This document shows positions 30,201-64,000 of a stretch of 64,000 nt of DNA, in pieces (positions within the stretch are counted from its first letter, which is position 1; each line of letters opens with the position of its first letter). The DNA is from Rhizaria sp. SCN 62-66 (Eukaryota), in contig MEDY01000236.1 in the NCBI GenBank assembly GCA_001724265.1, positions 1 through 64,000 of the forward strand. The letters run 5' to 3'. The position numbers and the translations under genes were made by a program. The notes below the pieces were generated by a model. It was not told the DNA's origin. It searched no databases and was given only the letters and a program-made list of their open reading frames with translations.

Positions 30201-30956
30201 ATGTCCGATAAGGTAAGTCAAGACGCCGCTAAGGCCTCTTTAAACAACGCCCCCCAAGCTTCTTCCTCTTCATTGTCATACTCTCTGCCCATGCACCCTT
30301 CCCGCAAACGCACGGCTCCCACCGCAGCAGCTTCGATCGACAACGGCGCTGCTGCCACTGACTCAGCCTCAGCCTCGAGCTTCAGCTCTGACTCGAATCT
30401 CGACTCTTGCATCGACGCTGCAGCGCCCCCCTCTGCCCCCGCCCTAGCCTCCGCCCCCGCCCCCGCCCCTGCCACGGCAACGGCGACGGCGACGGCGACG
30501 GCGACCGACGCAGACGCCCACGATCTCTTGGAGCAGTGGCGCGCCGCGGGCTTCCCCGCGCGCAGCGTGGTGCACTTCGCGAAGCTCTCGCACAAGGCCG
30601 TCGCGCACGCCGCGGTGCTGGAGCAGCACGCCCGCCTGCGCGCGGAGAAGGCTGCGGCCAAGGAGGTCACGCGCCTGGCGCACGAGGCGCGCATGCGCAG
30701 CTAGGAGCAGGCTGCGGCCAAGGAGGCCACGCGCGTGGCGCGCGAGGCGCGCATGCGCAGCCAGGAGCAGGCTGCGGCCAAGGAGGCCACGCGCGTGGCG
30801 CACGAGGCGCGCATGCGCAGCCAGGAGCAGGCCAAGGCGGAGCGCGTCGCCGCGCGCGCGCGCGAGCACGAATTTGTGCTGAGTCAGCATGCCGCGTTCC
30901 GCACGTTGAGGGCCTCGCGCAGGGCGCTGCACGAGGGCTACAACCCGGCGTGGTGA
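30201..30956 (+). CDS. Hypothetical protein with 20-aa tandem repeats and one in-frame TAG (30702-30704)
   Basis: ORFs 30162-30704 and 30735-30956 share a frame. The TAG aligns with CAG in the neighbouring repeat copies. Confidence 0.6.
30650..30835 (+). repeat. About 3 copies of a 60-bp coding tandem repeat (AAAKEATRVAHEARMRSQEQ)
   Basis: Lines 30661, 30721 and 30781 are near-identical at 60-nt spacing. Confidence 0.9.
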
Positions 30957-32169
30957 GCCGTCGAGGGGCCCGTGCCGCTCGTAACCGTCGAGGGGCCCCT
31001 AGCCGTCGGGGGACCGGCGGCGGCTGCGGCGGCTGCGGCGGCGGCGCTTGACCAGTCGGACGCGGCAGCGACGGCTGCGTCCTCTCTCTCTGTTTCTCTC
31101 TCTCTTGTTGACAGTGAGAGCGCCAGTACCAGCGCGAGTGTGTCTGCTGAGGAGCCGGGATATGGACCGGGACAGGACCAGGACCGATAAGAAGAGGACG
31201 GGTGCGTTGCGATGCGAGGCTTGATACCGAGAGCAAGGCAGTGTAAAGCGAGCGCAACGACGTGTCTTGAAATGTATGTGTTGCTGTAATTGTAAAGCTG
31301 TCGCTGTCGTTAGCACGACAATACTGGTCCTCGTGACCGATTATCGTGTTGCCGACACGATGTGCGTGTATCTTGTAATGATATCTTCTGCGCTCGCTGT
31401 ATACTGTATCCTTGCCATTCTTACGCGCTGTACTTTGCCACACGCGCTGCACTCACTCTCTATCGGTGCACATCAGTGTCATAGCACGGATGGACCGAGA
31501 GACGCTTGTCCCGCGCGCGTGTGATCGGAGTACGCTGCGTTATCGCTTAGCGGCGGCTTGATCGGACATGCTAACCCCACATTTCACACACACAGAACCC
31601 ACCCTGCACCACGTGCGGACCGGAGGAATGCGCGTGTCTTCCGCGGCGGTCGCAGTGCAGCCGTGGCCCACCGGGGCCTGCTGCACTGCGCTCGCCGCCG
31701 AGACGCGGCGCGGACCGACGCGACGTCCAGTTATTGCGACATAGACCGTGATAGTCTTGTCGAATCATTGATAAAACTAAGGTTGATATACAAAATATAT
31801 TATTTCCGCAATATCTCAATGATCTTATTGGATAGATCTTCACCTCCAAGATATAGACTCGGAGTTGTGCCCTTACGATAGACTCGTGGCTGGATCTGCG
31901 TGTCGTGATCGGGACAAGTTGCCTTGCATTCGGATTTCTATATGTATACAGGGCAACGATATAATAGTCATTTGTCGCTTGAAGAAGTGATGAAGAAATT
32001 CATCATATATTTTCACAAATTAGGAATTTGACCAAGCTTGATCTTGCTAGTTTATTTCACTCTTTTGACATGCACATCTTTTCTTCAGGTAAGCTGCGCA
32101 ACTCGCTTCGCACAAATCACCCAACCTCACTGAGTCTTTCACCGATTGGAATAATTATCTTTTTATAGC

Positions 32170-33946
32170 ATGGGAAAGTCTTCTAAAAAGAAGAATGCTG
32201 ATGCACAGGCAAAAACCCTGCCAAATACCCCAGATAAGCCACCAAGCAAGTCCCCCAAACCCATCAAGTCTCCCACAACTCCGCACCACCACGCGCACTT
32301 CAAGTTCGATGCCTCATCCCAAACCAACGCGCCAGGCGCGGTTATCGTCATCAACAAGCCTGTACCAAGTCATCTTTCCGCTGCAGCTGCGCGCAGGAAG
32401 CGCCCCGCGCCCCCCTCGCCGCACCCTCTCGACGACACCCCTGGCCAGCGCACTGCGCCCGCCCCCGCCCCCGCCCCCACGCCCGCCCAGGGCTCTGCGA
32501 CTGCTCCTGCATCTGCGCCCGCCTCCGCCTCTGTGTCTGCGCACGCTTATGCTTCTCCGCCCGCGTACTTGCACACGTCGTCGCGTCCCGGGGGCGGCTT
32601 CGTTGCCTCACCACCCGCGTCAGCGGCGCACGGCAACACGGTCGCCGCGCCTCTAACAGCGCCTTTGACCCCGCACGCGACGCACGGTGCGGCGCCTGCA
32701 GCTGGTGTTGCCAGGTCGCCGGGTCCCGCAGTGGCGCTGCCGCTGCCGCTACGTGCGGCGCAGTCATTCTTCCCGCCCGCTGCGCCGGCGCTGCCTGCGA
32801 CCACGCTACCTGCGGCGGCGGGCGTGCACGGCAGCAGTGTTGGGTACTATGGCAGTAGCAGCGGCAACACTATTGGTAACAATGCTAGCTTGGGTTTTTC
32901 TGGAGCTATTGGCCCCATTAGCTATGCTAGCTCAATGTCTGCTTACAGTTACAACAACGCTTACGGTCACACTCCGCTGACCGCGTCTTCCTCATCGTCA
33001 TCGCTGTCGTCGCCATCAGTCCCGCTCGTCTCCGCATCGGCCCTCTCATCGTCGCTGTCATCGCCGCTGATCCTGAGCGCGATTAACCCCGCGACCAGCC
33101 CGGTTCCCGGCGTTAATTGCGGTCTGACTCATGGCGGTATGACTCTGAGCGAGCAGTCGTCGCGCGCGTACCACGCGTACCGCGCCCAGCGTCTCGAGAC
33201 GGAGCGCGCGTACCTGGCCGGCATGCTCGCTGTGCTGGCCCCGCTGCGCGCGCGGCTTGCGGCGCTGCGCGCGGCGCATGACCGGCAGCGGCACGCGCAC
33301 TTTGCGCTTGCCCGCCGCGCGCTCGAGCTGGAGCACCGCCGCGCCGCCTGCGCCGCGGGTTCGCGCGAGTGCGCAGAGGCCGAGGCGGCGCTGCAGCTTG
33401 CGCAGGCCGAGGCTGCGGCGCTGCTACGCGCGCTGGCCGCCGGCGACGACGTGCTGGCTGCGGCCGAGGGTGCGGTGGACGAGGCCGGCGCAGGGTCCCT
33501 CGCCGAGGCCGAGGCCGCGGTACGCAGCAGCGAGGCCGCGCTAGCGGCGGCGGCGGCGGCCGCGAACGGACTGCTGCAGCATCAATTGCCGAAACAGCAA
33601 CAGCAGCAACTGCCGCAGCTGCATCAGCAGCAGCTGCAGCAGCAACAGCAACAGGCGATGCCACTCACACAGCCGCAACTGCAACAACAGCAGCAGCCTA
33701 CGCAGCAGCACCAGCAACAACAAATGCAGTCACAATGGGTATCAAACCCAAACCACTTTCTGTCGTTGCCTCCACAGCTGCCACGACAGAGCCAGGCCCC
33801 GGGCAGTCAGGCCTAGGGCCAGCAGCAGGTCTCGGATGCTGAGATGCGCACCATAGTCGAGAAGCACCGGGTGAAGCAGGCAGAGATCCAGCAATACTAT
33901 CGCCAGTGGGACGAAAATGAAGCCGAGGCGCGCAAGAAGCTTCAGC

Positions 33947-34034
<88 letters not shown>

Positions 34035-36230
34035 CAACAGCAACAACAGCAGCCACAGAGTAAAGCTGCTGCAGTGAAGCCGGAGAATAATCCCATCAAG
34101 AGCAATCCTAACAATACGACTAATAACGGCTCAAAGAGCAACAGCAGTACCAGTAGCAACGCCGCTGTTGCAGCTTCGACGAAACCGACTAATAGCAATA
34201 CTCCTGCTTCCACAGTTGCCGCAGCAGCCATTGCCGCGGCCGGAGCTCCTGTCGCGAACGTGGCTTCATCACAGACACAGAATCCTCTCACTAAGGCTGA
34301 GCACAAGCTCACCAAACAGGAAGCGCACATCCAACGTGTCCTCGAGGCTGCAGCGCAAAAGAAAGAGCAAAACCGGCTGCGCACTCAAGAGCTTCAGAAA
34401 GCAGCAGCATTAAGGAAGGAGCTGCAGCAGCAGCAACTGAAGGAGGAACAAGAGCAAAAAAAGCTACAGGAGCATAAGAAAAAACAGCAACAGCAGCAGT
34501 CAAAAGCTGCGCAGCAGCAACAACAAGGGCCCGCCAAGAAGAGTGCTGCCGTGGTCGCAACGCAGGAGGTGAACAAGTTTGAGCAGCAGAATAAGAGTAA
34601 CCTCAGCGTTGGGATGAGGGCTGAGCAAGAGAAGCTCGCGGACAAGGAGAAGCGGAAGCCTGTCGAGCAAGAGCAAGTTGCGTGGATGCCGACGGGCAAC
34701 GAGAAGGCGGGGCAACAACAACAGCAGCACGAAAAAGAGCAGCGCGAGGCAGAGCTGCAGAAAACAAAGAGTAAGCAGGCTGAGCGTGAGAAGGCCGCTG
34801 TCGCCGCTACAAAGGCTGCGGAAGCTGCTGCCGCTGCCAAAATTTCGGCAGCTGTTAAGGCGAGGCTTGACGCGTAGATGTCATCGAAGCCCGAGATCTA
34901 GGAGATGATGGCCTTGGCAGATGCCAAGAAGGAGTTTGCGAAGAAGCAGGAGCACGAGCGCGGGCTCAGGCATCTCGAATACGATGCAAAAGAGAGGCAC
35001 GAGGCCGAGGCGAAGCAGGCTGAGCAGGTATTAAAGGTCAAGGAGAAGAAGATCCTTGAACAAGAACACAAACTCGCACTTGAAGCAAAAACCAAGCGTG
35101 GTCAAGAACAAAACTCAGTGCTGGCGCAGAAAAGTGACGTCATGAAGAAGTTGGAAGAAGAACAACTTGAACGTGAACAAAAGGTGAACAAAGTTACTGA
35201 GATGTTGACCAAGAAGCGTCAAGCTCTGGCTGCTGAGCGTGAACGCGAGGAGCATAAGCGTCTGCGCAAGGAAGAGCGTAAGCGCGAGAAAGCTGAGCGT
35301 GCTGCTGCACAGGAAAAGGAGACGACAGAGCAGGAGAGGCGACTTGAAGCTGAGAAAAAGAAGAAGCATGAAGAGAAGGAAAAAGAGCAGCGTAAGCGCG
35401 AAAAGGAGCAGCGCAAAGAGCATGAGCGCAAGACGCAGCACGAGCAGCAGGCATGCGACGAGGCAGCGAGGGCGCAGAAGAAGAAGAAGGAACAGGCGGA
35501 GACTGCAGAGGCGACGGCAGCTAAAATCAGGGAGAAGGCGAAGGCCGATGAGGAGGCCAAGAAAAAGGCCGACGCTAAGCTTGAGGCTAAGGCTACTGCT
35601 GCCGCCGCCGCCGCCGCTGCTGCTGCTGCTGCCGCAAAGGCGAAAGCTGACGCTACTGCGGCAAGGCCAGCGACAGAACTGCCGACACGCTCTCTGCGGT
35701 CAAACTCCACTGTTACCAACTCGACTTCAAGCTCTGGTACCAGCTACACCTCGAGCTCGAACTCCAGCTCCAGCTCCTGCGCGAGCGTCACCGCATCGGG
35801 CTCCCACCGCGGCGCCGCGGCCGGCACGAGCGCGGCTGCGCTCGACGCCGCGGCCCGCCAAGCCGCGCTCGTCAGCACAAAGACTTCGGTGAGCGCGTCT
35901 GTTGCGCAGAATAACAGTGCCCCCGACACTTCTAGGACTGTTGTCAAGAGGAACACTTACAACTTCACAACTGACGATAAAGACAGCAAGAAGAAGATTG
36001 TCTGGTCTGCGGCAGCTGTTGCTGAGGCTGCGGCCGCGGCCGCTGCTGCAGCCTCTGGTCCGACTATTTTGCCGAGCGGCGCTGCGTCTGCGTCCCCCGT
36101 GTCAGCGCGAGCGACTGTGAGCGGTGCAGTGGCGACCGAGCCTCCCCGTGAGTCGCGCCGGCCGGGGACTGTGACGTGCCCCGACTATGACTCTGATCTG
36201 GACTCTGGGCCTGAGAATGGTCCGCGCTGA
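32170..36230 (+). CDS. Large Q/E/K-rich coiled-coil protein with three in-frame TAGs and one frameshift in a CAA microsatellite
   Basis: ORFs 32170-33816, 33844-, 34074-34877 and 34905-36230 join via TAG 33814, a one-base-short CAA unit near 34033, TAG 34875 and TAG 34899; final TGA. Confidence 0.65.
33946..34032 (+). repeat. (CAA)29 microsatellite encoding polyglutamine
   Basis: Perfect CAA run read directly from the sequence. Confidence 0.95.
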
Positions 36231-36656
36231 CGCGACGCTTAGAAAGGCCAGCAGCAGGCGCACGCTGCTACGGGCGTGCACACGTATCCTTCAGGCTCCG
36301 TGAATTACTCAAGTTATGTCACAACAGGCGTGACTGCGTTTGTTGTATGACTTATGTTTAATCTAATTTATATAATCGAGATATCATTTCACAATAATGT
36401 TACCGACATCTTAAGAACTACCCACGCAATACACAGTATTTATTCGGATATAATCGAGTAAAAATTTATAGAATGTATTCAAACAGCGGGGCATGGCCTG
36501 ATCTTAACGCGCATATTTGAGATGTGAGATTTGAGGGGTGGATAGCTGCGCAAGAGACTTTACAGTGTTTAAATGAGACTATGCCATAATTGAGTAATGT
36601 GCTCCAAGCATGTAGATGTGGTTCACGTGTACCCACAGGTAGTTATGCGTATGTAC

Positions 36657-39003: not shown

Positions 39004-40318
39004 TCACCTGTGGCCGCCGCGCTTGTTGCTGTAGTAGAGCAGCGCCATGATCTGCTCCATCTCCTCCTTCTTCTTCTGCGCGGCCTTCTTCTCGGCCCTG
39101 GCGGCGGACAGCGGCGCGGCGGCCGCCAGCACCTCGTCCAGCTTCCCCTCGCGCTCCAGCGCCCGCAGCAGCTCGACCGCGAACGGGACGTAGTTGTGCC
39201 CGCGTCGCGCGTTGCGCTCCCGCGCGCGCTCGCGGTCGCCCCGCAGCGCCGCGGCCTCGCGCTCCGCCGCCGCGGCCGCGGACGCGTTCCCGCGCGCGCG
39301 CGCCGCCGCAGCCGCAGCCTCGGCCGCGGACAGGGCACTCTTGTCGATCGTCAGCAGCGAGTACTCGAGCTCGGAGGCCTGCGAGAAGCGGGCGATGCGT
39401 GCTGTAATGGCCTCGGCCGCCACCGTGCGCCACTCGCTGCTCGGATCCGTGTCGTCCTCGGCGTTGCACTCAGAAGCAGTCGCAGTCGCATTGATGGTCA
39501 TGTTGTTGGTGTTGTTGTTGTTGTTGCCGGCCGCGTCGTCGATCATAGGCGCCCCGGCCTCCTGGCTGCCCGCATCGGCGCTCACAGCGCCGACCCAGCC
39601 GGGCACTTTACCGACGGCGATGGGTCCCTGCTTGAGCCCGTCGAGCTCCCACACGGTGCCGCCCACCGGCACGTAGGCGACGTAGTGGTACGCGCGCCCT
39701 GGCCCGCCGCCGCGGCCGCCGCGCGTGCTCAGCGCGTCCGGCGGCTCAAACGCGTTGTGCGCGGCGCGGAGCAGCGCGCTCTCGCCGATGGCTTCGCCGC
39801 GGATGTCGGCGGGCAGGTCCAGAGCGAAGGCGCGGAACTCGGTCAGCGCGGGGCCCAAATCAGCGGCGCGGGGGCGGTTGAGCAGCACGGAGAGCACGGC
39901 CTGGCTCGCGCAGGCGTTGGTGACGGTCTGATGCGCGAAGAAGAGTCCCGGAACGGCGGCGGGGTCGGTCACGGGGCGCGGGTCGGCCTGGCGGGACCAC
40001 TGGAAGAGAAACACCATACCCAGGCAGGGCTGCTCGGGGGGCAGCGACAGAGAGGACAGGTCGAAGACCTCGTTGACGTCGACGCCGGAGACGCCCATTC
40101 GCTCGATGAGCTCAGTGAACACACCTACAAGTGTGAATATGTGCAATATGTGGCGGTCAGTGTGATCGTGTTGCGTTTCAATGCGGACATGCGAGATACA
40201 GAAAGAAGCATTCAATGAAGCTGTAGTGAAAGCGAACTCACGGAAGAGTACAGAACATGAAGAAGAACGTACTGGGCTCGTTTTCGATCGTAAACCACTC
40301 GTCTGAGGAGTCGGACAT
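39004..40318 (-). CDS. UCHL5: Ubiquitin C-terminal hydrolase UCH37/UCHL5 (peptidase C12); one intron at about 40126-40272
   Basis: WFTIENEP|SVFTELI; catalytic QTVTNACASQA, YHYVAY, ELDGLKQGP; C-terminal ENARRGHNYVPF-type motif. Confidence 0.92.
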
Positions 40319-40834: not shown

Positions 40835-41839
40835 ATGCGTCCTTCGACTGTGACCCGTGTCGCGCTCACCGCGCCTATTGTCCGTCTGTTCAGCAGCAGC
40901 GCGGCCTCTGCGGCCGCGGCCCCGTTCCGCCCGCGCCGCTCGTTCCTCTACATCCCCGGCTCCTCCGCCAAGATGCTCGCCAAGCCCGTAGCGTCGTACG
41001 GCGCCGACACCGTGTGCCTGGACCTCGAGGACGGCGTCGCTGCGAACCAGAAGTCCGAGGCGCGCGCGCTCATCTCGCAGCACCTGCAGTCGCAGTCGGC
41101 GCCGGCGAGCGTGGAGCGCATGGTGCGCATCAACCCGATGTCGACGCGCCAGGGCGTCGAGGACCTCGAGTTCGTGCTGGCTCAGCCCGTGCTGCCGGAC
41201 GGCATCTGCATCCCCAAGCTCGACACGCCCGCCGAGCTCACCGAGGCCGCAGAGATGATTGCCGCCGCCGAGGCGCGCGTGTCGGCCGCCACGGGCAAGT
41301 TCGTCCCCCGCCTGCCTATTATCGGGCTCATCGAGTCCCCGCTGTCGCTGATGAACCTGCGCGACATCACCACCACGCGCGGCTCCGACCGCCTCGCGGG
41401 CGTCATCTTCGGCGGCGACGACTACGGCTCCGCCGTGGGCGCCACGCGCACTGCGAGCAACCACGAGCTGGCCTTCGCGCGCGGCTGGACGCTCACTGTT
41501 GCTAAGGCGGCCGGCATCCAGGCCATCGACATCGTCCACAAGACGTTCAAGGACCAGGACGGGCTCCGCGCCGAGTGCCAGGAGGCGGCCGAGATGGGCT
41601 ACACGGGCAAGCAGCTTATCCACCCGCTGCAGGTCGCCACCACGAACGAGCTCTTCGCGCCCTCGCCTGCGCTGCTGCGCTGGGCCAAGAAGGTCGTCGA
41701 CGCTGCTGCGCACCACCAGTCGCTCGGCACAGGCGCCTTCGCGCTCGACGGCGTCATGATCGACATGCCCACCGTCAAGCTTGCCGCGGGCCTCTACGCG
41801 CGCGGCATCGCCTGCGGCGTCACTCCGGCTGCAGAGTAA
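40835..41839 (+). CDS. CLYBL: Citrate lyase beta-like protein (CitE/citramalyl-CoA lyase family), probably mitochondrial
   Basis: PRRSFLYIPG, CLDLEDGV, MVRIN, IES, FGGDDY, GYTGKQLIHPLQV, GVMIDMP; presequence-like N-terminus; TAA stop. Confidence 0.93.
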   Translation: MRPSTVTRVALTAPIVRLFSSSAASAAAAPFRPRRSFLYIPGSSAKMLAKPVASYGADTVCLDLEDGVAANQKSEARALISQHLQSQSAPASVERMVRINPMSTRQGVEDLEFVLAQPVLPDGICIPKLDTPAELTEAAEMIAAAEARVSAATGKFVPRLPIIGLIESPLSLMNLRDITTTRGSDRLAGVIFGGDDYGSAVGATRTASNHELAFARGWTLTVAKAAGIQAIDIVHKTFKDQDGLRAECQEAAEMGYTGKQLIHPLQVATTNELFAPSPALLRWAKKVVDAAAHHQSLGTGAFALDGVMIDMPTVKLAAGLYARGIACGVTPAAE

Positions 41840-42116: not shown

Positions 42117-45100
42117 TCAGTCCCTGTGGGCCTGCTGCTCAACCAGCGCGGCAACCTGCTCCGACATCTCGGCCACGACATGCTCGTAGTTGCCCAGCGC
42201 CGTCGCCATCTCGCGCTCCAGGTCCGCCTTCGCGCCCGCCAGCTGGTCGCGCTCGCGCGCAGCGCCCGCCGCGGTGTGGGCAGCGGCCACGAGCGCCACG
42301 GCCATGCGCTGCGCCGAGAGCGCCGCCGCGCTGGCGCCAGCTTCCGCGTGCATGACCTGCGCCAGCAGCCCCGCGGACTCGCCGCGCTGGGCGCGCCCCG
42401 CCGCGGCCGTGAGCGCGCGGCGGAACGCGGCGCCGGCGCTGCGGGCCGCGGCCTCGGCGGCGGCCACGGGGTCGCGCTCGACGGCCTCGGCCTCGGCGGC
42501 GCTAGCGTGCGCGAGAGCCTGCGCCGCGTGCGAGTGCGCGTGTGCGTGCGAGTGGGCAGCAATGCGGGGCTTGAGGGTGAAAGAGAGCGAGTACTTGGAC
42601 CGCGTGCGCGGCACAGCAGTCGTCGCGACAGCGGCCGCAGCAGCGGCAGCGGCGCCGGCGAGCTTGGTGCTGCTGCCGGCAGTGCTGTTGCTGTTGTTCA
42701 CAGCGGCGGCGGAGGCAGCGAGTTCGGCTAGCATGTCCTTGACCTCGCTCTCGACATCGCCAACAGCAGCAACGACAGTGCCAGAGCTACTATTCGCGCT
42801 GAGCCTGAGCGCGCGCTCGGCCCGCGCGGCCCGCTCCGCCAGCGCCGCGACCTGGCCCTGCGCCACCATGCGCGCGCGCGCCGCGTCCGCCGCGGCGGCC
42901 TCTGCCCGCTGCGCCCGCGCCTCGGCCGCCGCGGCGTGCGCCTCGGCCGCGTCTGCCCGCGCGCGCTGCGTCCCGGCCTCGGCCTCGACCGCGGCGCGCG
43001 CCGAGTCGCCGCCGGCGGCCGCGGCGCGCGCGTCTGCCCCCGCGACCTCGGCGGCGGCGAGCTGCGCCTGCAGCCGGGTGACTTCACTCGCCAGCGCCTC
43101 GACCGCGGCGGCTAGCGCGGCGTTGGCGTTGGCGCCGCGGACCAGCGCGGCCCCGCGCAGCGCCGCCACCGCGGCGGGGTCCGCGCCCGCGGGCACGCCC
43201 GCCACCGCCACAGTCGAGGCCGCACTCGCAGTCGCGGTCGCGGCCGCTGATCCAGTATGCGCGCTCGTGCTGGCACTGGCACCGGCAGCAGAAGCAGACG
43301 TAGTGGCTGCAGCGGCGGCGGCGGCGGCGGCGGCGGGGAGAGCGCGCAGCGCCCCCAGGAAGCCCGTGGTCTGCGTGTACAGCGCGGCGCGGTCGGCGGC
43401 CGCCGCGGCGCTGGCGGCGACGGGCGCGGGCAGAGCGCGCGCGTTGGGCGCGGACGCGTCGGGAGCAGAGGCGTCGGGCGTGAAGGCCGAGAGGAAGGCG
43501 GCCAGGTCGCTGCGCACGCTCCACCCGCGCGTGGCGGGCGCGGCGGCGCAGTCCACCATCACGGCCCCCGAGGCGGCGCGCGCGGCGCCCGCGTCGGCCT
43601 CGGCGTCGGCAACAGCGTCGTCCGCCGCCGCGGTCGCCGCCGCACACTCGCGCTCGCTGCCCGGGAGCGCGGCAGTCGACGCGTGCGATGCGAGCGACAG
43701 GCCGTCCGCGGCGGCGGCGTCAGCGCGCGCGCCGTCGGCCCTCGCGGCGACGACAGCAGAGCTCGAAGCAGCAGACGTAGCGGCAGTGCCTCTAGTCAGC
43801 GCCGCCACCGCGGCCGCAGTGTCCGCCGCGGTCACCGGGGGCCCCGCGTCGGCGGCGGCGTCCACGGCGGCCACGGCCTCGGTCGCCGTCGCCACCAGCG
43901 CGCCCGCCGCGGTGGCCACGGCGGCGGCGGCGGCGGCGAGGTTGCCCAGCGCCGTACCGACCGCGGCGTTGGCGCGGCGCAGCTCCTGCGGCGCGAGCAA
44001 GACTGAGCGCTCCACGGTCGCCATCGCGGCCCAGCGCGCGGTGACCGTGGCCAGCGCCGCCGCCACAGACTGGCACTGCACCGGCGCGCCCGCGAAGGGC
44101 AGCTGCGCCAGCGCCGCGGCCGCGGCGGTCGAGACGGGCGCGGCGGACCCCGCGGCGGCGGCGGCAGCAGCAGTCGCAGTCGAGTTGGCCCCGGCTGCGC
44201 CGCCGCTGCCAGCGCTGGACGCCGACGTCGCTGCCGCACTGGCGGCAGTGGTGAGCGCGCAGGCGAGCGCGAGGTCAAGGCAGGCGGCGGCGCGGGGTCC
44301 CGGCGTCCAAAGGTGCGGCACATGCACGCCCGCTACGCCCGCCCATAGCGGGCGCGCGCTCGCCGCGCCCGTCTTGCTGCTGCTGCTCCTCGCGGCGTCT
44401 CGCTGGGCGTTGGCGACTGTGAGCGCGCGCGTGGTGTCGACGGCGGCGGCGGCGCGCGAGAAGAGCGCGGCGGCCTCTTCGAGCGCAAGGCACAGGTGCG
44501 TCTTGTGTCCGCGCCACACGGCCTGGCGCTCGGCACCCGTGACCGCGAGCCCGGGGTTGTAGAGCACGGCGTCGGCGGCGCAGACCGTGTGCACACACTC
44601 GGCCGCGGCCGCCAGCGCCGACAGCGCGCCCGACGCCAGGCACAGCAACACCTGCGCGGGGGCTGGCGTGCGCGAGGCAGGCTGACCGCTGCCGCTGCCG
44701 CTGATGCTAGCCGCGGTGCCATCGTTGTGCTCGACATCGCCATCATCGTCGTCGTCGTCGTTCAGGGTGAGGTGAGGGAAGAGATCAGTATCGGACGCGG
44801 GGTCGCCCGTCGCAGCCGTCACGGCGGCGCGCGCGGCACACATCAGCGCCTCGCTCTCGTTCTCAGTCTCCGGAGCGCCCGCGCCCGCGCCCGCGCCACC
44901 AGCTCCGGCCACAGTGATTTGCTTCGAGTTGTTGTTGTTGTTGTTGTTCCCGGCAGAGCGCAGCCACGCGAGCGCGCCGGCAAGCGCGCTAGTGCGGCGC
45001 ACTGCCCGCGCAACGACGCTGTCAAGCAGCGACCCGGCGGCGTCGGGCGACAGCGAGAGCGCGGCGGCCGAGGCGCCGCCCGAGTTGGCAGCCGCGGAAA

Positions 45101-49800: not shown

Positions 49801-50045
49801 ACTCGCGGCTGCTGGTAATCGACCGGCTGCTGCAGCGCGGCGCTCACCGCAACCTGATCAACACGCAGGGCGCGAACCTGGCCGACTGCCTGATGATGAA
49901 CAACTTCAACGACGCCAAGGAGCGCGACGAGCCCACGATGGCGGCAGTCATGGCCAGGGCCGGGTTCACTATGACGCGCGTGGTGCCGACGCGCTCCATG
50001 TACGTCGCGTTCGAGGGCGAGCCCATCGTGCACAAGACTGCGTAA
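46894..50045 (+). CDS. COMT-type SAM-dependent O-methyltransferase with an N-terminal TM extension; 4 exons (~46894-47607, 47746-47923, 48030-48189, 48321-50045)
   Basis: Dimerisation-domain-like AVTKLNVADYI and LRRLLRA..VIGIFEE; VVDVAGGRG; GVVFDL; EGSFF; MQILHDWND; AKERDE; TAA stop. Confidence 0.8.
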
Positions 50046-52079: not shown

Positions 52080-54120
52080 TCAGTGCGCAGTCGCGTCTTG
52101 CTTTGCGAACCGCGTGCCGACGCCCGCAAAGGCCTGCTTCAGCGAGTCAAAGAGCGCGATGGAGATGGCCGACGCGGGGGCGGCGAAAAGCACGCGCGCG
52201 CCGGCGCCCTTGAAGAGCCCGCGCACGCCCTCGGTGCGCACCAGCTTGCCCAGCCCCTGCAGCGTGGACCGGTAGCCGAAGTCGAAGCCGGGCGGGATCG
52301 AGCCCGCGCCGACGGCGGCGGGCAGCGCCGCGCCCTCCGCCACCACTGCAGCCACAGCAGCAGCAGAGCTCGCAGTCGCAGTGGCAAGGCGGCGCTGCTG
52401 CGCGGCGGCGTTGCGCTGGATCTGAATGCGCAGCTTGACCAGGTCGAGCGGGTTCGTGACCAGGGACGCGAGGCCGCCCGCGAGCGCGCCGGAGCATAGA
52501 AAGAGCCACGCCGGCAGCGGCGCCTCGGCCGCGTCGTCGCCGGCGCGTGTGGACGCGCCATTGGCGCTCGTAGCGGCCGCGTTGGCGCGGTACATCTCAG
52601 CCGCCGTGGCCTTGAACCACTCGTAGGAGGAGAGGTAGAGAGCGCTGAAAGGCCCGAAAGAGGCGAGCGTGGCGCCATAGCCGCGGTAGAGCCCGCGCAG
52701 CCCGTCCTCGCGCGCGATGCGCCGCAGCGCGTCCCACGTGCCGCGGTACTGCAGCGGCTGCGGCGCCGCACTCCCAGTCGCACTGCCCGTCACAACGGCA
52801 GTGCCGCTCGCAGAAGCAGTGGCCGGCGCTGCTGCCGCGGCTGCTGCGGTGACCGCCGGGGGCGCGAGCGACTGGACCTGGAGGCGTTCCTTGACGACGT
52901 CGATGGGGAGCCAGACGACGCACGACACGGCCTCGGCGAGCAGCCCGGCGGTGAAGTTGAGCGCGAAGGGAGCCGCCAGAACAGTGTGCGCCGCGCGCGT
53001 CACCAGCCCGCGGCCCTGCGCGGATGCCGGCTGCTGCTGTTGTTGTACTGCACCGGCAACGCTGTCGTTGTCGTCGCTGTGGCCGTGTGTGAGAGCGCGC
53101 GGGTCGGGGCCGGTGGCGTCACGGACGCGGCCGAGGACGGACTTGGCCAGCTCGTACGAGGTGAAGTATGCAAACCCGCCGGGCGCGGAGCCCAGGAAAA
53201 CGACCCAGAAGCCCGCGTACAGCCCCCGGGGCCCCTCGGTGCGGAGCGTGTGCGTGAACAGCGATGTGATCGTCGGCCGGTGCACCGCCGGCGCAGGCGC
53301 AGGCGCAGTGGTGGCCGCGCTTGTCGTCGCGGTATTGTAGGGGTTAAACGCGGGGATCGAACCGGGGTGGCCGGGGGCGTGGAACGCGGCCGGGTGGCCG
53401 GGGGTGCTGGCGGCGGCGGCGACGGGGGCAGAGGAGATGGCCTGGGTGCAACGAGCAGAGGAGAGCAGTTATATGATTGAGCAGATATAACAGAGAGGTG
53501 AGATGATGATAGGAAGATAGTGAGAGAGAAAAAATAAAAGCTAAAGGTGACATAACATATGGCCCGACATATCAATATAGTTGGCTTCAACAGATACTGA
53601 AGTCAGAGATTGTGGGTGGTTGAGTGTGTAAGCTTACCTGTAGCTTGGCCTTGATGGTGTCCAGCGGGTGGCAGGGGATGCGGGAGATCATGCCGGAGAC
53701 GGAGGACGCCAGCATGACAGGCACCATCTCGGACAGAGGCGGCAACAGCGACGTACTATCGACGCCGTTGCTCTTCGGGTTACTACTCTTGCCGCTGCCG
53801 CTGCTGCCGCCGCTGTCCTGATGGTCATTGCTGCTCGAGCTGGGTTCAGCAGGCGAGGCGCCTGGCACGGGAGCAGCTGCGGAGGCAGAGAGAAACGCGG
53901 GCAGACGAAGGCCGAACGGAGACCACAACAAAGACGAAGATGATGATGTCGACTGTGATGGCGTCGTCTGAGAGTGCGAGCGAGAGTGCGCTTGTGAGGC
54001 CGAGGCCGGGGCCGGCTGGGACGCGGTAGGCATGAGAGTGGAGAGTGGGAGCACGCCAGGCATAAAGCTAAAAATTCCACGGGCCGGGCCAAAGGGCTGC
54101 GCGGCGGTGTCGAACGACAT
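52080..54120 (-). CDS. Mitochondrial carrier family (SLC25) protein; intron at about 53442-53637
   Basis: Three PxDxxKxx motifs (HPLDTIKAKLQ, PIDVVKERLQ, PLDLVKLRIQ) plus EGPRGLYAG, DGLRGLYRG, EGVRGLFKG; TGA stop. Confidence 0.93.
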
Positions 54121-54913: not shown

Positions 54914-56554
54914 TTAATACTCCTCGTCCGCGTCCGCGTCCACGTCCGCGCGGGCAGAGAGAGCGCGCGCGCGAGCCACAGTCCTGGGCGCGGCGGCTTC
55001 CGTGGTCACGGCGCCGACAGCGGAGAGCGCGGCGGCGCGGAGCACTGCGAGCACCTCGGCAGTGGGCTGGTAGTCGATGTCGGTGGTGAGCACCGCGGTG
55101 CCGGCGGCGAGCGTGAGCTGCGTGCCGACCAGCCGCAGCCCGCGCACCGTAGGCAGCGGGAGCCCCGACGCGAAGACCTGGTTGATAAAGGGCACGACGA
55201 CGCCGCTGACGACGGTAGCGATCTCCTTGTCGAGCTTGTCGACCGAGAACTGCCCGATCGCCGTCTCGGCCAGCGAGAGCGATGACGTGAACTTGGCGAT
55301 GTTGAGCTTCAGAAGCGGGTCCGCCGGGTCCGTGGCGTCGAACCACATGTTGGCGGCGCCCGCGAGCGCGACGTGGACCACGAAGGCCGCCTTCCAGCTG
55401 GTGCCGACCTTAGCCTCGGTCTTGAACGACATGAGTCCGCCCATGTCGAGCCCCTTGCTGGAGATTGAGACGTTGAACTCGCGCGCAAAGCTCAGCACGA
55501 TGCGCAGGTCCGCGTCGGGGAACGTCGCTTGCAGCTGCGGCACCATGGTCCAGGCCTTGGAGTTGAAGGCCACAGGCCACAGCGGCGGCGGGTTGGTCCC
55601 GTCGAAGGTGAAGGCAAATGCGCCCGACTTGTGGAGCACGTGCAGCAGCGTCTGCGGGACAAAGCTCGACAGCGAGAGCGCAAGCATGGGCCCCGCGGCC
55701 GGCAGCGACTGCGGCACGCGCGGGACGGCGCCGTCGGACTTGCCCGTCGTGGCCGGGTACATCTCGCCGTTGAAGAGCATGCTCACGGCCGTCTTGGACA
55801 GGATCGGGGCCTCGGTTAGTGACAGATCCAGCACAGCAAGCGGCCCCACGGGCACGCGCAGTAGCATCGACTGCACGATCGTGTCGGCGAAGGCGTTGAC
55901 GGTGCTCACCATGGTCGTCTTGATGGCGTTCTCGAGCGTGGTCTTGATCTTGCCCTTAAAGAGGCGCACGATGAGGTTGTAGAGCCAGGAGAACATCGAC
56001 TCGGCGGTCTTGACGTCGATCGAGTCAATGTCGATAGCGACGTCCTTGACGCGGAACTGCGGCGCGAGCCCCTTGGCGGTCTGCACGGCGCCGACCTCGA
56101 GCGTGGCCGCGAAGTGCGAGCAGGCCAGTGACGCCGTCGCGGAGCCGGAGCCGGAGGGCAGGTGAGGGAAAATGGCCAGGCGGTAGCTCCAGTCCATCTC
56201 AGCCGAAAAGGCCGCGTTGTCGACACCGACGGTGAGCCCCGAGGTGAGGGACACGGACACGCCCGAGGTCTTGGCCGAGGTGACATGGATGTTTGTCACG
56301 CTGTACTCGAACCCGGTTTCGGTGCCCGAGATGCCGTCGAAGGTAAGCTTCGTCAGCGCCTCAAGCGCGGAGGGCACCACGCGGCGCGCGAACTTGTCGA
56401 GGCCGCCGACGTTGAGCGACGCGATCACACCCGGGGCGACGGGGGTGCCCATGTCGGCGGCGTCGCTGCTGCCGGCGTTGATACTGCTGCCGGTGGCGCC
56501 GGCTAAGGCACTCAGGGCAAGCAACAGCAAGCAGAGAGTCTTCTTGATGAGCAT
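54914..56554 (-). CDS. Secreted BPI/LBP/CETP-family lipid-binding protein
   Basis: Signal peptide MLIKKTLCLLLLALSALAG; SLNVGGLDKF; SWLYNLIVRLFKGKIKTTLE; VPFINQVFASGLPLP; TAA stop. Confidence 0.85.
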   Translation of the reverse strand: MLIKKTLCLLLLALSALAGATGSSINAGSSDAADMGTPVAPGVIASLNVGGLDKFARRVVPSALEALTKLTFDGISGTETGFEYSVTNIHVTSAKTSGVSVSLTSGLTVGVDNAAFSAEMDWSYRLAIFPHLPSGSGSATASLACSHFAATLEVGAVQTAKGLAPQFRVKDVAIDIDSIDVKTAESMFSWLYNLIVRLFKGKIKTTLENAIKTTMVSTVNAFADTIVQSMLLRVPVGPLAVLDLSLTEAPILSKTAVSMLFNGEMYPATTGKSDGAVPRVPQSLPAAGPMLALSLSSFVPQTLLHVLHKSGAFAFTFDGTNPPPLWPVAFNSKAWTMVPQLQATFPDADLRIVLSFAREFNVSISSKGLDMGGLMSFKTEAKVGTSWKAAFVVHVALAGAANMWFDATDPADPLLKLNIAKFTSSLSLAETAIGQFSVDKLDKEIATVVSGVVVPFINQVFASGLPLPTVRGLRLVGTQLTLAAGTAVLTTDIDYQPTAEVLAVLRAAALSAVGAVTTEAAAPRTVARARALSARADVDADADEEY

Positions 56555-59221: not shown

Positions 59222-60584
59222 TCAGGCGGGCGTGGTGGCAACGTCGGCGGCACGGATGGACTTGACGAAGATCTTGTGCGGCTGCTGGCGGCCGGGCCCG
59301 TTGGCGCCCAGCGACCAGTCGTAAGAGCACGCGTAGGCGTACATGCTCCCGTCGGGGCTGAAGACGCCCGTCGAGATCGGGCCCTGCTTCGGCTGCGGAG
59401 AGGATAAGGGGAAACAACGACAAAGAGACAAAGAAAGGAGTGAGCGTGAGCGTAAGTGTGTGTGATGCAGAGTCGAGGTGAGGATAACCGATGTTTTGGC
59501 ATTGCAGAGTGAGATAAATATGATCGCCATATCTTAAACAGATGCATTGCATTGAACAGAGACAAACCAAGCCAGCAGAGTAAATGCGGAAACTCTTGCC
59601 AAGCGTGTGCGGGGAGGGGGCGACGTACGTTGTGCGTGTTGATCGAGACTTTGCCGATGTGGTTCCACATCGTGATCTCCTCGTTGCCCGTCGTAGCGAG
59701 CGCGCCCGTCGAGGGGTGGAACGACAGCGACGTGACGGGAAAGATGTTGCTGATGTTGCCCGTCGCAGACCGGTGGCAGCGGAAGGGGAACGACTTGTCG
59801 GCCAGCGCGCCGAAGTACTTGATGTGCGCGCGGCCCTCAATGGAGCCCGTGGCGTAGCCCATGTCGTTCGGCATCGCGCCCACCACGCGGGTCTGCACAG
59901 AACAACAGTAGAGAGAGATGAGAGAGATAAGAGAGGTGAGTTAGATCGGAGCGAAAGCAAAGCAGAAGCATATGGACCAAGATATAGCGGTAACAAGTCG
60001 ATAATAAAAACGTGGTGACAAACCTGGAACTCGTGGGGCGTCTCGGCCGTCTCGAAGAACGCGGTCGGGTTGCGCACGTCGACGCAGCCGACGAGGCGGT
60101 TCTCCATACCGATGACGAGCAGGTTGCCCGCGGCGTCCATCGAGTAAACCTTGCCGGGCAGCGCGAGCTCGGCCACGGGGGCCTTGGTCTGCGAGCGCGG
60201 GTCCCAATACCGCACCGCCTTGTCCCAGCCGCCAGTGACGACGGCGCCGAGAGAGGGCAGCAGTCGGCAGTCCTTGATGGCGGCCGCGTGCTGGCCCACA
60301 ACTATCGACTGGTTGGCGTTCGGGTCGAAGGCGCGCAGCACGTTGTCGCAGCCGGCGGAGAAGATGAGTCCGTTGGCCGAGTCGCACTGGACCGAGAGGA
60401 CGGGCGCCTCGTGTTCGTACGCAGTCGCGGGGGCGATGCCCTGCGCAGTCAGCGTCCAGACGGAGACCTTCTTGCTCCAGGAGCCGGAGGCGAGGACGGG
60501 CGTGTTGGCGTACGTGCCGAACGACAGGGAGGAGACGGTGTCCTGCGGAACCTGGGGCACGGGGCGGTCAGCGACTGTAGCCAT
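59222..60584 (-). CDS. RAE1: mRNA export factor Rae1/Gle2 (WD40); 3 exons
   Basis: PQDTVSSLSF, TGGWDKAVRYWDPR, FQ|TRVV, GSIEGR, FRCHR, YACSYDWSLG (the SYDW motif favours Rae1 over Bub3); TGA stop. Confidence 0.88.
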
Positions 60585-61012
60585 GTTGGATCTGAAACTG
60601 GGTCTGTTTGGGAGCGACAAGAGACGGGGCGAGGAGGGTGGTGAGCGAGATGCGAGACGTTTGGATCGCGTCGCCGGGGATGCGAAGCAGAGGAGCACAG
60701 ACATTCGCATATGAAAAGATTTTAACGTACCAAATAAATTACCTCCTCTGGAAACTCTAAAGTTGAACGAGATTAAAAAAAGACGAGTGTGCTTTCCGCT
60801 TTTTCTCTTCGAAAAAATGCCGTCCACCCGCGCACCAGCTGAGGCTAGAAGCGCCACCACAGCTCTCATCTGGTGACAATCAGTGTCCATAGCCGTTGGG
60901 TGACGCAGTGCAATATAGGATGTACCGAAGTGAACAAGAGACTAGTGTATTAATGAAGTTGTTCTTCAAGTTATATAGATCCTATTTAACATTTTGCCGT
61001 CGATTCAAGCTC

Positions 61013-64000
61013 TTAGGTGAACGCCGAGTCGTTCAACCAGTCTGACGAAGTGCCCGTCCTAATCGCACCAGGACCAGCACCAGCGCCCGCACCCGCACCG
61101 CCGGCGAGCCCACCCAACCCCAGGGCTTCAAGGCTGCGCATAAACGGGTCGTCCGAGGCCCGTCCAGCAATGCCGAGGCCGCTCGCCTGCGGCCGCCCGT
61201 ATCCTCCTGGCTGCTGCAGCGGCTGCTGCTGAGGGTATTGCTGTTGGTAGCCGGCAGCCGCACCCGTGTTGCTGTTGAAGCCTCTGCCGGTGCCGGCGCC
61301 GACGCCACTACCACTAAAGCTCAGCCCAAGCGCGGCGGCCAGCTCGTCGGCCACGTCTCCGCCCGCCGCGATGCCCGTCCGAGTACTGGGGTTAGGGTAA
61401 GCGCTTGAGCTGCCGGCGCGGTACGGCGACGCTGAGGGCACGGGCGCCGTCGCGATCGCACTCGGCGCAGCGTATCCCGTCACTGGCGTGGGGTTGAAGT
61501 TGTTGTAGTTCCCCGCGCCCGCGGTCGATAGCTGCGAGTCGTTGAGCGCGTCCAGGCTGCCGAACCCGCCGTAGCCCGCCGCGGCTGCAGCAGCGGGCGC
61601 GGGCGCGGGCACAGCGCTGGCGGCCGGCGGCAGGGTCGCAGCGGGCGCCGTGGACGCGAAGGCCGAGTCCGAGTCCAGAAACGCCGGCTGGCGCTGCGGC
61701 CTCTCGGCAGCCACTGCGGCGGCCTCGTCCTCGGCCCACCGCGCGGGCCCGTAGCTGCCGCTCGTGGCCGCGAAGCCGAACGCGGGGTGGCCCGCCGCGG
61801 CGCCGGGGCCGAAGCTCGCGGCAAACGTGCTGTGCTGCTGCTGCTGCTGCTGCTACTGCGGTTGGCCGTAGGCAGTGGCGGCGGCGGGGCGCGCGGGGGA
61901 GGCGGCGTGGGGTGTGCCGAGAGCGCGGGCGAGCTCGGCGCCGATGTCATCGTCGTCATCGTTCTTGTTGTTGCGCTTGCCGAAGCCGTGGCCGTGACTA
62001 GCGTGGACGTTGTTGAAGTCGCCGCTGTGGCTCGGCGTCGGCGGCTGGTACTGGAACTGCGTTTGTGACTGCTGCTGAGAGAGCTGGCCAGAGAGATGAG
62101 CGTTGGCCTCGGCCGCAGCGTAGGCAGCGGCACGCCGCTCCATGGCGCCCGCCAGCCCGCCCGCCTTGGCGCTTGCACCGGCGGCGGGAGCGGGCTGGGC
62201 GGCGGCAGGGGTGAACTGGCCGTAACCAATCTGGTGCTGCTGCTGCTGCGGCTGCTGCTGTTGAGGCCTCTGCTGCTGTTGCTGCTTGTTGGCAACGGGA
62301 GCGGCGTCAAAGCTGTTAAATATGTCAGACGCGTCATTGTCCTCATCGCCAGCAACAAGAGGTGCAAGCATATGCTGCTGCTGCTGCAGCTGCGGTTGCT
62401 TGTGCGTGTTGGCAGCTGCAGGGCGCTCGTCCCAGTCGTCGAAGGGATCTGCCGTCTCCTCAGTCAAGTGACCGTGGGCAGGGTGATCGTGAGGCAGGCC
62501 GAACTGGTTGTTGTTGCTGTTGTTGCGCGCGTAGCCCGAGACCGTGGCTGTCGACGGCACGGGGCCCGGCGGCAGCAGTGGGGCGCCCACCAGGCCCAGA
62601 CTGTCGTCATCACCATCAACGCCCTCGAACTCAGCCTTACCCTCGCGCTCGCGCTCGCGTCCGGGGTAGTTGTAATGATCGCTGTCGAAGTCATCGTCGT
62701 CGCGACCGTGCGCACCGGTCACAGCCGGAGCCGCAGCAGCAGCAGTGGCAATGTTGGCGTTGGCGTTGGCCTTGGGGTCGTCGACGAGCACGGGCCCGTC
62801 CTGCACCTCAGCGTCGTTGTCGCCGTAGTCGACGTCGCTCTCGCCCGCGCCGCGCGCGCCCCCCTCCTCCTCGTCGTCGTCAAGCCCGAAGGCGAAGTCG
62901 CCCGCGGCCGCGCCCGGCGGCGGCGGCACGTGCTACGCGACGTCGACGCCGGCGCCCGTCGCGCCCAGCGCAGCCGCCGGGGCCGGCGTCGGGGCCAGGG
63001 CCGTGGGCGGGAGCTCGGACGCAGGCGCAGACACAGGTTCGGGCTGTGCAGCAACAGGCGCAGGCCCAGGCTCAGGCACGGCAGTCGGCGCGGGCTCTTG
63101 CTGCTTCTCAGCACCGGCTGTGGCCGCATCCGCGTTGGGATACGCCGCGGGCACCCTTTCCTTGTTCACGTCACACAGATACTCCTGCTCCTCATCGTAG
63201 TCGTCGTCGTTCTCGACGCCTTCGGCCACGGTCGCGGAGACCTGCGCGCTAGGCGGCAGCGGCGGCGGCGGCAGCATCGCGCCCGCCGCGCGGTCGAAGA
63301 TGGACATCGTGCGCGTCTTTTGCTTTGGCACAAACGCCATCGCAGGCGCCGCAGCCGCACCAGCGCCAGCGCTGTAGCCATGGCCGTGTCCGTGTCCGTG
63401 AGCGTGGCCGGCGACAGTGACGGCCGGAGCGGGCGCGGGGGGAACGGAGAGGCCGCCGCCCGAGGCCGGAAGCGTGAGCGCAGACTTGGGCGGCAGCGGC
63501 GGCGGCACGCGTGGCGGCGACACTGCACTGGCAGGCTCGCCAGCACCAGCGCCAGCAGCTGTCACAGCAGCGGGCAGGCCCGTCGCCGCCGGGGAGCTGA
63601 CCGACAGGCGCGCGTGCAGCGGCGGCGGCGGCAGCGCGGCGTGCCGCGTGGGCAGCGGCACGTCCGCGCTGGGGCTTGGGGGCGCGGCTCCCAGTGAGCG
63701 GGCGCATTGCCCCAACCCCAGCTCCAGCCCCTGTCCCTGTCCCTGTGCGAGCAGCGACGGCACGCCCTCGTCGTCTTCGCCCTCGGCGCCCGCGGGGCCG
63801 AACACGAGCTGGCCCGGCGCGGGCTGGGCGGGCGCGGCCGGCGCGGCGCCGCGGGCGGGCTTGACGGGCGCGGCGCGGGAGGAGGCCGCCGACGGGTGCA
63901 GCGGGGAAGAGCGCGAAAAGGCACGCTTGCCGGCGCGGTTGGGCGAGGTGCGGGCGCGCGCGTAGTAAATGCGACCGGTGCCGGCGATGAAGAACTTGCC
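61013..64000 (-). CDS. Low-complexity Pro/Gln/Ala-rich protein, 5'-truncated by the window edge, with two in-frame TAGs (62933-62935, 61853-61855)
   Basis: ORFs 62933-63805, 61853-62929 and 61013-61714 are in one frame, which is open from 64000 except at the two TAGs; final TAA. Confidence 0.7.

Follow-up and report, generated by a model that had tools for sequence, protein, structure and literature searches.

Known UAG codes and the present contig

The fornicate Iotanema spirale reads UAG as Gln and retains UAA and UGA as stops, a code of the NCBI table 15 type. It is described as an anaerobe whose UAGs were judged over hundreds of aligned transcripts, and a change in the GTS motif of eRF1 is reported (PMC5304391). 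In the same paper, the uncultured rhizarian exLh is described as reading UAG as Leu, with 384 in-frame UAGs spread over 71 genes, some of them conserved, and with terminators that are exclusively UAA or UGA (56 and 15 respectively); Condylostoma, Parduczia and Blastocrithidia are described as having context-dependent stop/sense codes, in which the same codon also ends genes (PMC5304391). Independent UAG reassignments are given for phyllopharyngean ciliates and for Protocruzia tuzeti (PMC11687900).

The window analysed, meaning the whole 64-kb stretch of DNA, belongs to a contig of at least 64 kb that carries about 28 genes; GC3 reaches 0.96, and the spliceosomal introns measure about 80 nt or more. 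The host is an aerobic eukaryote with GC-rich exons, from wastewater and bioreactor samples, whose lineage is unplaced. The best named matches have 50–57% identity for SRP54 and about 70% for uS3; no close named relative is found, and none of these matches is a ciliate.

The code proposed below has the same codon table as that described for Iotanema: only UAG occurs in frame, and UAA and UGA are the sole terminators. Unlike what is described for Iotanema, COX6B, from which the earlier note had concluded an aerobic mitochondrion, and mitochondrial carriers are confirmed here, and TAG is found in three orphan genes only. With the ciliates as described, the window would share the reassignment of UAG alone (to Gln in several of their lineages) and the retention of UAA as a stop. 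Ciliate genomes look otherwise than this contig, and its length, gene number, GC3 and introns set it apart from those ciliates, as the earlier note had argued from the GC-rich exons and the introns. As described for exLh, in-frame stops are all UAG and terminators only UAA or UGA (10 and 11 here); unlike in exLh, there are six TAGs in three genes, and at two of the sites the aligned or neighbouring codon is CAG. A stop codon within coding sequence is also what is described for Condylostoma, Parduczia and Blastocrithidia, whereas here TAG ends none of the 21 genes whose ends were placed.

Six in-frame TAGs in three orphan genes

The letters of the window confirm six in-frame TAGs, exactly at the positions and in the three genes given in the earlier note. 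Four are on the plus strand (30702, 33814, 34875 and 34899); the other two read CTA on that strand, at 61853-61855 and 62933-62935, and are TAGs of the minus strand. They are listed here with the genes that contain them, together with the agreement of the plus-strand sites with pieces of X3, an assembly from another study.

30201..30956, plus strand: gene 1, an orphan; one ORF, 251 codons long, with ATG at 30201, TGA at 30954 and one in-frame TAG
30651..30830, plus strand: tandem repeat in gene 1, three 60-nt copies of 20 codons each (family D16, 93–94% identity)
30702..30704, plus strand: TAG 1, gene 1; context gCTAGGa; X3 piece 30519-30732 has 0 differing letters
32170..36230, plus strand: gene 2, about 1,352 codons; ATG at 32170 right after a 5'UTR intron, TGA at 36228, three in-frame TAGs
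33814..33816, plus strand: TAG 2, gene 2; context cCTAGGg; X3 piece 32462-33933 has 0 differing letters
33943..34034, plus strand: (CAA)n tract in gene 2, roughly 90 nt, ending CA-CAA-CAG; a one-base frame change occurs here
34875..34877, plus strand: TAG 3, gene 2; context gcgTAGatg; X3 piece 34632-35575 has 0 differing letters
34899..34901, plus strand: TAG 4, gene 2; context tCTAGGa; same X3 piece 34632-35575, 0 differing letters
61013..64000, minus strand: gene 3, 995 codons or more, the 5' end lying past the window edge; TAA at 61013, two in-frame TAGs
62933..62935, minus strand: TAG 5, gene 3; context gcgTAGcac
61853..61855, minus strand: TAG 6, gene 3; in CCG CAG TAG (CAG)x6 CAC

The product of gene 2 is a Q/K/E/A-rich orphan, and that of gene 3 is a disordered orphan with DPF/DxF-like motifs on either side of its TAGs. 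None of the three genes contains a Pfam family. A homologue search for gene 3 over 1.84 billion representatives gave a single match, a 233-aa fragment identical to query residues 764–995, which is probably the same organism's own sequence. The TAGs therefore cannot be aligned to a conserved residue.

The four plus-strand TAGs are real. X3 has TAG at 4 of 4 of these sites, and X4, an assembly from a third study, has TAG at 3 of the 3 that it covers: its piece 33567-33909 retains TAG 2, and its piece 34772-35573, over TAG 3 and TAG 4, differs from the window only at 35037. X4 is a distinct strain (7 SNPs relative to the window) sampled about 10 years later; the same TAGs recur over three studies, 2015–2025. 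A sequencing or assembly artefact, in which CAG is miscalled as TAG, could be suspected from the CTAGG context, which is indeed present at three of the six sites as had been pointed out (30702, 33814 and 34899) and matches the long-read CCAGG-to-CTAGG error, and from an indel-like defect suspected in the (CAA)n tract of gene 2, with the eL42 gene perhaps another. The earlier note had held that CAG in accurate reads would undo its proposal; the contigs of X3 and X4 have TAG, so that this miscall is ruled out at all three CTAGG sites, and a miscall is rejected for 34875 as well as for 30702, 33814 and 34899. With X3 identical at four TAGs and X4 retaining the three it covers, an artefact is extremely unlikely to explain the pattern.

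On either side of every TAG, its frame is free of TAA and TGA. At 30702, 61853 and 62933 the TAG frame has the top score of all six on either flank, and GC3 there is 0.74–0.94; in gene 1, GC3 is 0.94 upstream and 0.93 downstream of the TAG. After the first TAG, codon bias and a GC3 of 0.85–0.93 continue for up to 640 codons, and downstream of TAG 2 comes a coding stretch without repeats, GQQQVSDAEMRTIVEKHRVKQAEIQQYYRQWDENEAEARKKL. In a scan of the whole window with a codon model trained on the other genes, requiring at least 40 open codons on each side, three TAG, no TAA and no TGA were flanked by coding-like sequence on both sides. The earlier claim that coding-like sequence follows in the same frame holds for each of the six TAGs, but the frame of 33814 differs from that of 34875 and 34899. 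Gene 2 apparently changes from frame 1, used until about 34034, to frame 0 onward. No aligned contig of any run bridges 33934-34059, and the length of the (CAA)n repeat is therefore not independently confirmed.

Could the TAGs simply never be translated, lying in unrecognised introns or between several adjacent genes, or being restored to CAG by U-to-C editing? Donor-like hexamers are present 89–294 nt upstream of 33814, 34875, 34899 and 62933, and the single polyA-RNA contig (run X9), which spans only 30100-30251 of gene 1, covers none of the TAGs, leaving some room for introns or editing. However, the candidate introns around those four sites have a GC of 0.54–0.75, compared with 0.42 in a clear intron, and show in-frame codon bias and a coding-like translation, in contrast to the AT-rich introns elsewhere in the window. 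The 400 nt before 30702 and before 61853 contain no donor-like motif, no AT-rich spacer or promoter-like gap was seen between the ORF pieces of the three genes, and nuclear U-to-C editing is without support here. We regard these explanations as very improbable.

The main rival is that the code is standard and the six TAGs are premature stops fixed in three dispensable, fast-evolving orphans, which would then produce truncated proteins or be young pseudogenes, the lack of TAG at gene ends being due to chance or to a preference for TAA and TGA. As in ordinary young pseudogenes, the stops are in non-conserved genes, and gene 3 is without a homologue. The four coding SNPs of X4 in gene 2 are all non-synonymous, so that this gene evolves nearly neutrally; its apparent frame change, and a possible 1-nt deletion in X4 (at 33797, depth 3), also favour this rival. 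The eL42 gene on the same contig looks broken, and decay or assembly indels therefore do occur in it. Furthermore, CAG is the commonest codon one step from a stop here, which makes TAG the nonsense codon most likely to arise, at a share of 0.62.

Against this, all six truncating events would have to be TAG. The three genes have 6 TAGs in frame and 15 in the two off-frames, i.e. no depletion, whereas TAA and TGA are fully excluded, at 0 and 0 in frame compared with 35 and 82 in the two off-frames; at the off-frame density about 58 TAA plus TGA would be expected per frame. A single stop type at background triplet density is unlike ordinary premature stops. In a model of nonsense paths, the probability that 6 of 6 are TAG comes to about 0.06 and is by itself not decisive. 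Frameshifts are likewise essentially absent: over the 2,598 codons of the three genes there is none, except the candidate at the (CAA)n tract. Between the window and X4 there are 2–3 indel events and 7 SNPs, so that neutral decay should give more frameshifts than nonsense changes. A pseudogene would be expected to carry mixed lesions, with all three stop types and frameshifts, and not six TAGs, no TAA, no TGA and one candidate frameshift. The persistence of codon bias far beyond the first TAG, and of the same genes and TAGs over strains and years, also argues against decay. Premature stops in dispensable genes are therefore an unlikely explanation, though the one that most deserves weight.

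Terminators and the other genes of the window

Twenty-one gene ends were placed in the window, fewer than the approximately 25 of the earlier note, whose observation that all are TAA or TGA nevertheless stands: 10 are TAA, 11 TGA and none TAG. The sample is small, the ends of five further genes being left out. In addition to those of the three genes above, the ends are as follows.

3171..3173, plus strand: TAA, syndetin-like gene
3547..3549, minus strand: TGA, SRP54; the C-terminus agrees with relative L001
6561..6563, plus strand: TAA, ribosomal protein uS3
9573..9575, minus strand: TAA, secreted Q/A-rich protein that ends with a Carb_bind domain
12799..12801, minus strand: TAA, cold-shock-domain protein
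14227..14229, plus strand: TAA of eL42 exon 3; a TAA, at 14273, also closes the displaced C-terminal frame
16477..16479, plus strand: TAA, COX6B
17730..17732, minus strand: TGA, membrane-protein-like ORF 17733-18395
28519..28521, plus strand: TGA, 3,293-codon orphan ORF
28869..28871, minus strand: TGA, centrin-like EF-hand gene, last exon
39004..39006, minus strand: TGA, UCH-family deubiquitinase
41837..41839, plus strand: TAA, HpcH/citrate-lyase-like gene
42117..42119, minus strand: TGA, KLRAQ-domain gene
50043..50045, plus strand: TAA, O-methyltransferase-like gene
51780..51782, plus strand: TGA, SNAP-like gene, last exon
52080..52082, minus strand: TGA, mitochondrial carrier
54914..54916, minus strand: TAA, BPI/LBP/CETP-family gene
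59222..59224, minus strand: TGA, WD40 gene, last exon

UAA and UGA are thus still stops, no TAA or TGA of the window being flanked by coding sequence on both sides. Among sense-codon pairs ending in A or G, 78–97% are G-ending, yet the TAR terminators are all TAA. The probability of finding no TAG among 21 ends is 0.009 if the TAG share is 0.20 and 0.11 if it is 0.10 (full range 0.002–0.11), which also weighs against premature stops under a standard code. Fourteen other TAGs follow a coding-like open frame; one is an intron acceptor and 13 are in alternative or antisense frames of better-scoring genes, and no TAG-ended coding segment was found in the window outside such genes.

In the 12 other ORFs of the window there is no TAG in 9,565 codons, 362 of them Gln codons; these ORFs include the 3,293-codon orphan, with 112 Gln codons and no TAG. 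This bears out the earlier description of TAG as rare and absent from the conserved genes of the window, and it is also what premature stops in dispensable genes would produce. The chance of all six TAGs falling in the three genes is 0.0033, which counts against a plain reassignment. The 64-kb window contains no tRNA genes or Rfam matches, the eRF1 gene is not in the window, and the contig does not occur in the metagenome, genome and viral collections.

Intact downstream frames, and the limitation of TAG to three genes that are not conserved, could also be accounted for if UAG were ambiguous or leaky, through weak suppression (by a near-cognate tRNA-Gln or a scarce suppressor) or context-dependent reading, and tolerated where partial truncation is harmless. 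A C directly after the stop codon is a leaky context. The bases at this position are G, G, A, G, C and C at the six sites, which is not uniformly leaky, and nothing points to a dual role, since TAG stands at none of the 21 ends. Leaky reading is for these reasons improbable.

UAG as a probable sense codon

The in-frame TAGs in three fast-evolving genes, together with the lack of any TAG gene end, suggest that UAG is read as Gln. We therefore favour, with a probability of about 0.65, a table-15-like code in which UAG is no longer a stop and is read as sense, most probably as Gln, and only UAA and UGA terminate. The pattern expected from the code proposed in the earlier note is present, qualified by the restriction of TAG to three orphans and by the apparent frame change in gene 2. 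Gln is the best guess for the meaning of UAG, judging from its neighbours: copy 1 of the gene 1 repeat has TAG at 30702 where the aligned codon of copies 2 and 3 is CAG, and the TAG at 61853 heads a run of CAG codons.

In such a code, UAG would be read by a tRNA whose anticodon is CUA and whose ancestor is probably tRNA-Gln, and eRF1 would have lost its recognition of UAG. The reassignment may be young, or TAG may be poorly decoded, and either would restrict TAG to the three fast-evolving orphans. TAG would so far have arisen by CAG-to-TAG transitions in these Q-rich genes and not in conserved ones.

The window may, with odds that we put a little below even, record stop-codon capture at a very early stage in an unsampled, free-living aerobic lineage, in which UAG has gone as a terminator and is only starting to return as a Gln codon in the least constrained, Q-rich genes, conserved genes being still closed to it. 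The rare split in meaning between UAG and UAA would then have arisen independently here.

A eukaryotic contig from an unplaced lineage

The window is a eukaryotic contig, with GC-rich exons (GC3 0.62-0.96) and AT-richer spacers and introns between them. Pfam matches were found for a syndetin-like gene, SRP54, uS3, a cold-shock-domain protein, eL42, COX6B, a centrin-like EF-hand protein, a UCH deubiquitinase, an HpcH/citrate-lyase-like enzyme, a KLRAQ-domain protein, an O-methyltransferase-like protein, a SNAP-like protein, mitochondrial carriers, a BPI/LBP-family protein and a WD40 protein. COX6B and the carriers mark the organism as aerobic, as the earlier note had claimed from COX6B. Near-identical DNA is present in bioreactor and wastewater metagenome runs from several studies, dating from 2015 to 2025.

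A 5' UTR intron is present in many genes, its acceptor (often TAG or CAG) lying just a few bases upstream of the start codon. Such 5' UTR or start-proximal intron sites lie at 10580-10590, 16040-16056, 18390-18402, 30190-30203 and 32090-32172, and eL42 has an intron immediately 3' of its ATG. GTACGT and GTAAGT make up most of the donor sites. The window contains no dispersed repeats, only low-complexity families.

The best named matches have 50-57% identity for SRP54 and ~70% for uS3, and metagenomic relatives reach 80-82%. No close named relative emerged from protein searches with SRP54 and uS3 or from one cluster look-up, and the lineage is therefore unplaced. A metagenome search with SRP54 returned 18 loci, the top one at 80% identity on a 2.3-kb contig; the contig of the window itself is not among them. 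The SRP54 genes of these relatives stop at TAA or TGA, on contigs too short or too distant to inform on TAG. The same search of genome contigs gave bacterial Ffh only, and of viral contigs no match. SRP54 (3550-5232, minus strand) has a long Met/Gly-rich C-terminal extension with GGMGGM-type repeats, which is common to the metagenomic relatives (loci L001-L006) at GC contents from 0.34 to 0.62. The window SRP54 and its metagenomic relatives are a clade without named members. BLASTP of the window SRP54 against P0003 gave no alignment, yet the two are plainly similar by eye; this is probably a quirk of the tool.

In-frame TAG codons in three genes

The six in-frame TAGs listed in the earlier note were all found, at 30702, 33814, 34875 and 34899 on the plus strand and at 61853 and 62933 on the minus strand. 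They lie in three genes:

30201-30956, plus strand: gene 1, 251 codons, one in-frame TAG
32170-36230, plus strand: gene 2, ~1,352 codons, three in-frame TAGs
61013 to beyond 64000, minus strand: gene 3, at least 995 codons, two in-frame TAGs

A codon model, trained on genes other than those under test, was run on the whole window. Three TAGs, but no TAA or TGA, were found to have 40 or more open codons and coding-like sequence on either side. At 30702, 61853 and 62933 the TAG frame scores best of the six on both flanks. Past the first TAG, codon bias and a GC3 of 0.85-0.93 persist for hundreds of codons. The remaining in-frame TAGs in ORFs delimited by TAA or TGA either serve as intron acceptors or fall outside the translated sequence.

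Occurrences of the three triplets in genes 1-3 (off frame: two frames summed)
TAG: 6 in frame, 15 off frame
TAA: 0 in frame, 35 off frame
TGA: 0 in frame, 82 off frame

Genes 1-3 thus treat TAG as an ordinary triplet, and exclude TAA and TGA completely.

The earlier note needs one amendment on gene 2. The TAGs of the gene are present, but 33814 is not in the same frame as 34875 and 34899, because a one-base shift occurs where a (CAA)n tract ends (33943-34034, plus strand; pure, ~90 nt, ~30 units). The interval 33934-34059 is not spanned by any contig of the four sequencing runs compared, and the shift may therefore have arisen from misassembly of the repeat.

No Pfam family was found for genes 1, 2 or 3. 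The search for homologues beyond Pfam covered gene 3, for which a word-indexed protein search at near lengths gave no match, and the sole match of an exhaustive HMMER search was a 233-aa database fragment identical to the C-terminal part of the query. No TAG can therefore be aligned to a conserved residue. The fragment begins after the second TAG; gene callers that use the standard code cut short any gene with TAG as a sense codon. The disordered tail of gene 3 (61016-64000, minus strand) has DPF/DxF/W-type motifs (ADPFDDWDE, DIFNSFD, DDPFMRSLEAL, DFAFGLDDD), which occur on either side of both TAGs and presumably resemble those of endocytic-adaptor tails.

As far as sequence context can indicate, glutamine fits as the amino acid read at TAG, which is one transition from CAG. 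The TAG at 30702 is aligned with CAG in the next two copies of a 60-nt repeat, 61853 has the context CCG CAG TAG followed by six CAGs, and 33814 is within a Q-rich stretch. Such contexts are evidence of the ancestry of the codon, not of its present decoding.

Gene ends and independent contigs

Terminators were placed from homology, ORF ends and the drop in GC beyond them, the ends of five genes being left out. The 21 placed comprise 10 TAA and 11 TGA, in agreement with the earlier claim that no gene ends in TAG. If TAG normally had a share of 0.20, 0/21 would have a probability of 0.009; with a share of 0.10 it would be 0.11. Upstream of 18 TAGs the frame is open and coding-like for 40 codons or more. 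Of these TAGs, four are in-frame sites of genes 1-3, one is an intron acceptor, and 13 are antisense or out of frame in better-scoring genes.

It had been suggested that some of the TAGs might be miscalls of CAG, three of them being in a CTAGG context. Logan contigs of four runs were aligned on 30100-36300, which covers the four plus-strand TAGs of genes 1 and 2. In X3, a run of another study, the pieces spanning 30702, 33814, 34875 and 34899 match the window at every letter. The run X4 belongs to a third study (2025) and represents a distinct strain, which has 7 SNPs and keeps TAG at 33814, 34875 and 34899. All three CTAGG sites read TAG in these independent contigs, so that a miscall is ruled out for the four plus-strand TAGs, by X3 at four sites and by X4 at three. 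Artefact, introns or editing, taken jointly, are left with the small remainder of the probability.

The contigs of the polyA-RNA run X9 cover 30100-30251 only. The run X6, of another study, is probably DNA. At 30762 (plus strand) a 90-nt X6 contig has T for C, which would place another TAG in gene 1, at the equivalent position of repeat copy 2. If the contig were a segment of copy 1 shifted by one repeat, four mismatches would be expected, and two are observed; the T may reflect strain variation or a difference in the repeat array. Many joints and loose ends of the aligned contigs fall in GCG/CAG low-complexity tracts, have their source in other organisms or repeats, and were left out of the comparison.

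Reassignment or premature stops

On these observations we consider it probable, at roughly 0.65, that UAG has been reassigned to sense, in a code similar to NCBI table 15 (UAG as glutamine, UAA and UGA as stops). By a rough likelihood estimate, reassignment would be favoured even from a low prior. The main alternative, that the six TAGs are premature stops under the standard code, appears unlikely. It needs six truncating events, every one of them a TAG, and has to explain the lack of TAA and TGA in genes 1-3 and of TAG among the terminators. Furthermore, there is at most one frameshift, though indels are common between the strains (2-3 events per 7 SNPs), and the TAGs persist across three studies and ten years.

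Several observations nevertheless tell against plain reassignment. There is no TAG in 9,565 codons (362 of them Gln) of 12 other ORFs, and the chance of all six landing in genes 1-3 is 0.0033. The conserved genes of the window are free of TAG, as already noted from the sequence. One of the 12 ORFs, uninterrupted over 3,293 codons (18640-28521, plus strand), low-complexity, Ser/Ala/Asp-rich and with no Pfam family, has 112 Gln codons and no TAG. In a model of nonsense paths the TAG share is 0.62, which gives a probability of ~0.06 that six of six are TAG. All four coding SNPs of X4 in gene 2 are non-synonymous, and X4 has a 1-nt deletion at 33797, which at depth 3 may be an error. The window contains no tRNA genes or Rfam matches.

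The gene for eL42 (RPL44/L36a; 13666-14277, plus strand) looks broken. Exon 3 ends at 14227, the segment that normally has the second Cys pair (second zinc-knuckle) is missing, and a diverged but recognisable C-terminal motif, followed by a stop, is in the +1 frame after exon 3. It is either a pseudogene, a divergent paralogue or an assembly deletion, and thus decay or assembly indels do occur in the window.

What reassignment must explain is the restriction of TAG to genes 1-3, which would follow if the codon were young or inefficiently decoded. Leaky or ambiguous decoding of UAG is a further reading, which we regard as very improbable.

Only a handful of lineages are known to have a nuclear code that gives UAG a meaning different from that of UAA (PMC5304391, PMC11687900). 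The code proposed here is described in these papers for Iotanema spirale, Protocruzia tuzeti and some phyllopharyngean ciliates. The rhizarian exLh, as presented there, has 384 UAGs in 71 genes, and 56 UAA and 15 UGA terminators (PMC5304391). On that account it resembles the present case in having UAG alone in frame and gene ends of UAA or UGA only, but the TAG density here is far lower and the conserved genes are TAG-free. Among the literature matches listed for a UAG = glutamine nuclear code, titles and abstract openings show no organism of this kind.

If true, this would be a further independent split of UAG and UAA and would extend the range over which such codes are known. It would be carried by an aerobic, free-living protist, rich in GC, that is found repeatedly in wastewater reactors. 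The case, if real, is possibly an early stage of reassignment. With TAG still so rare, the organism would be a natural intermediate in which to test codon-capture against ambiguous-intermediate models of code change.
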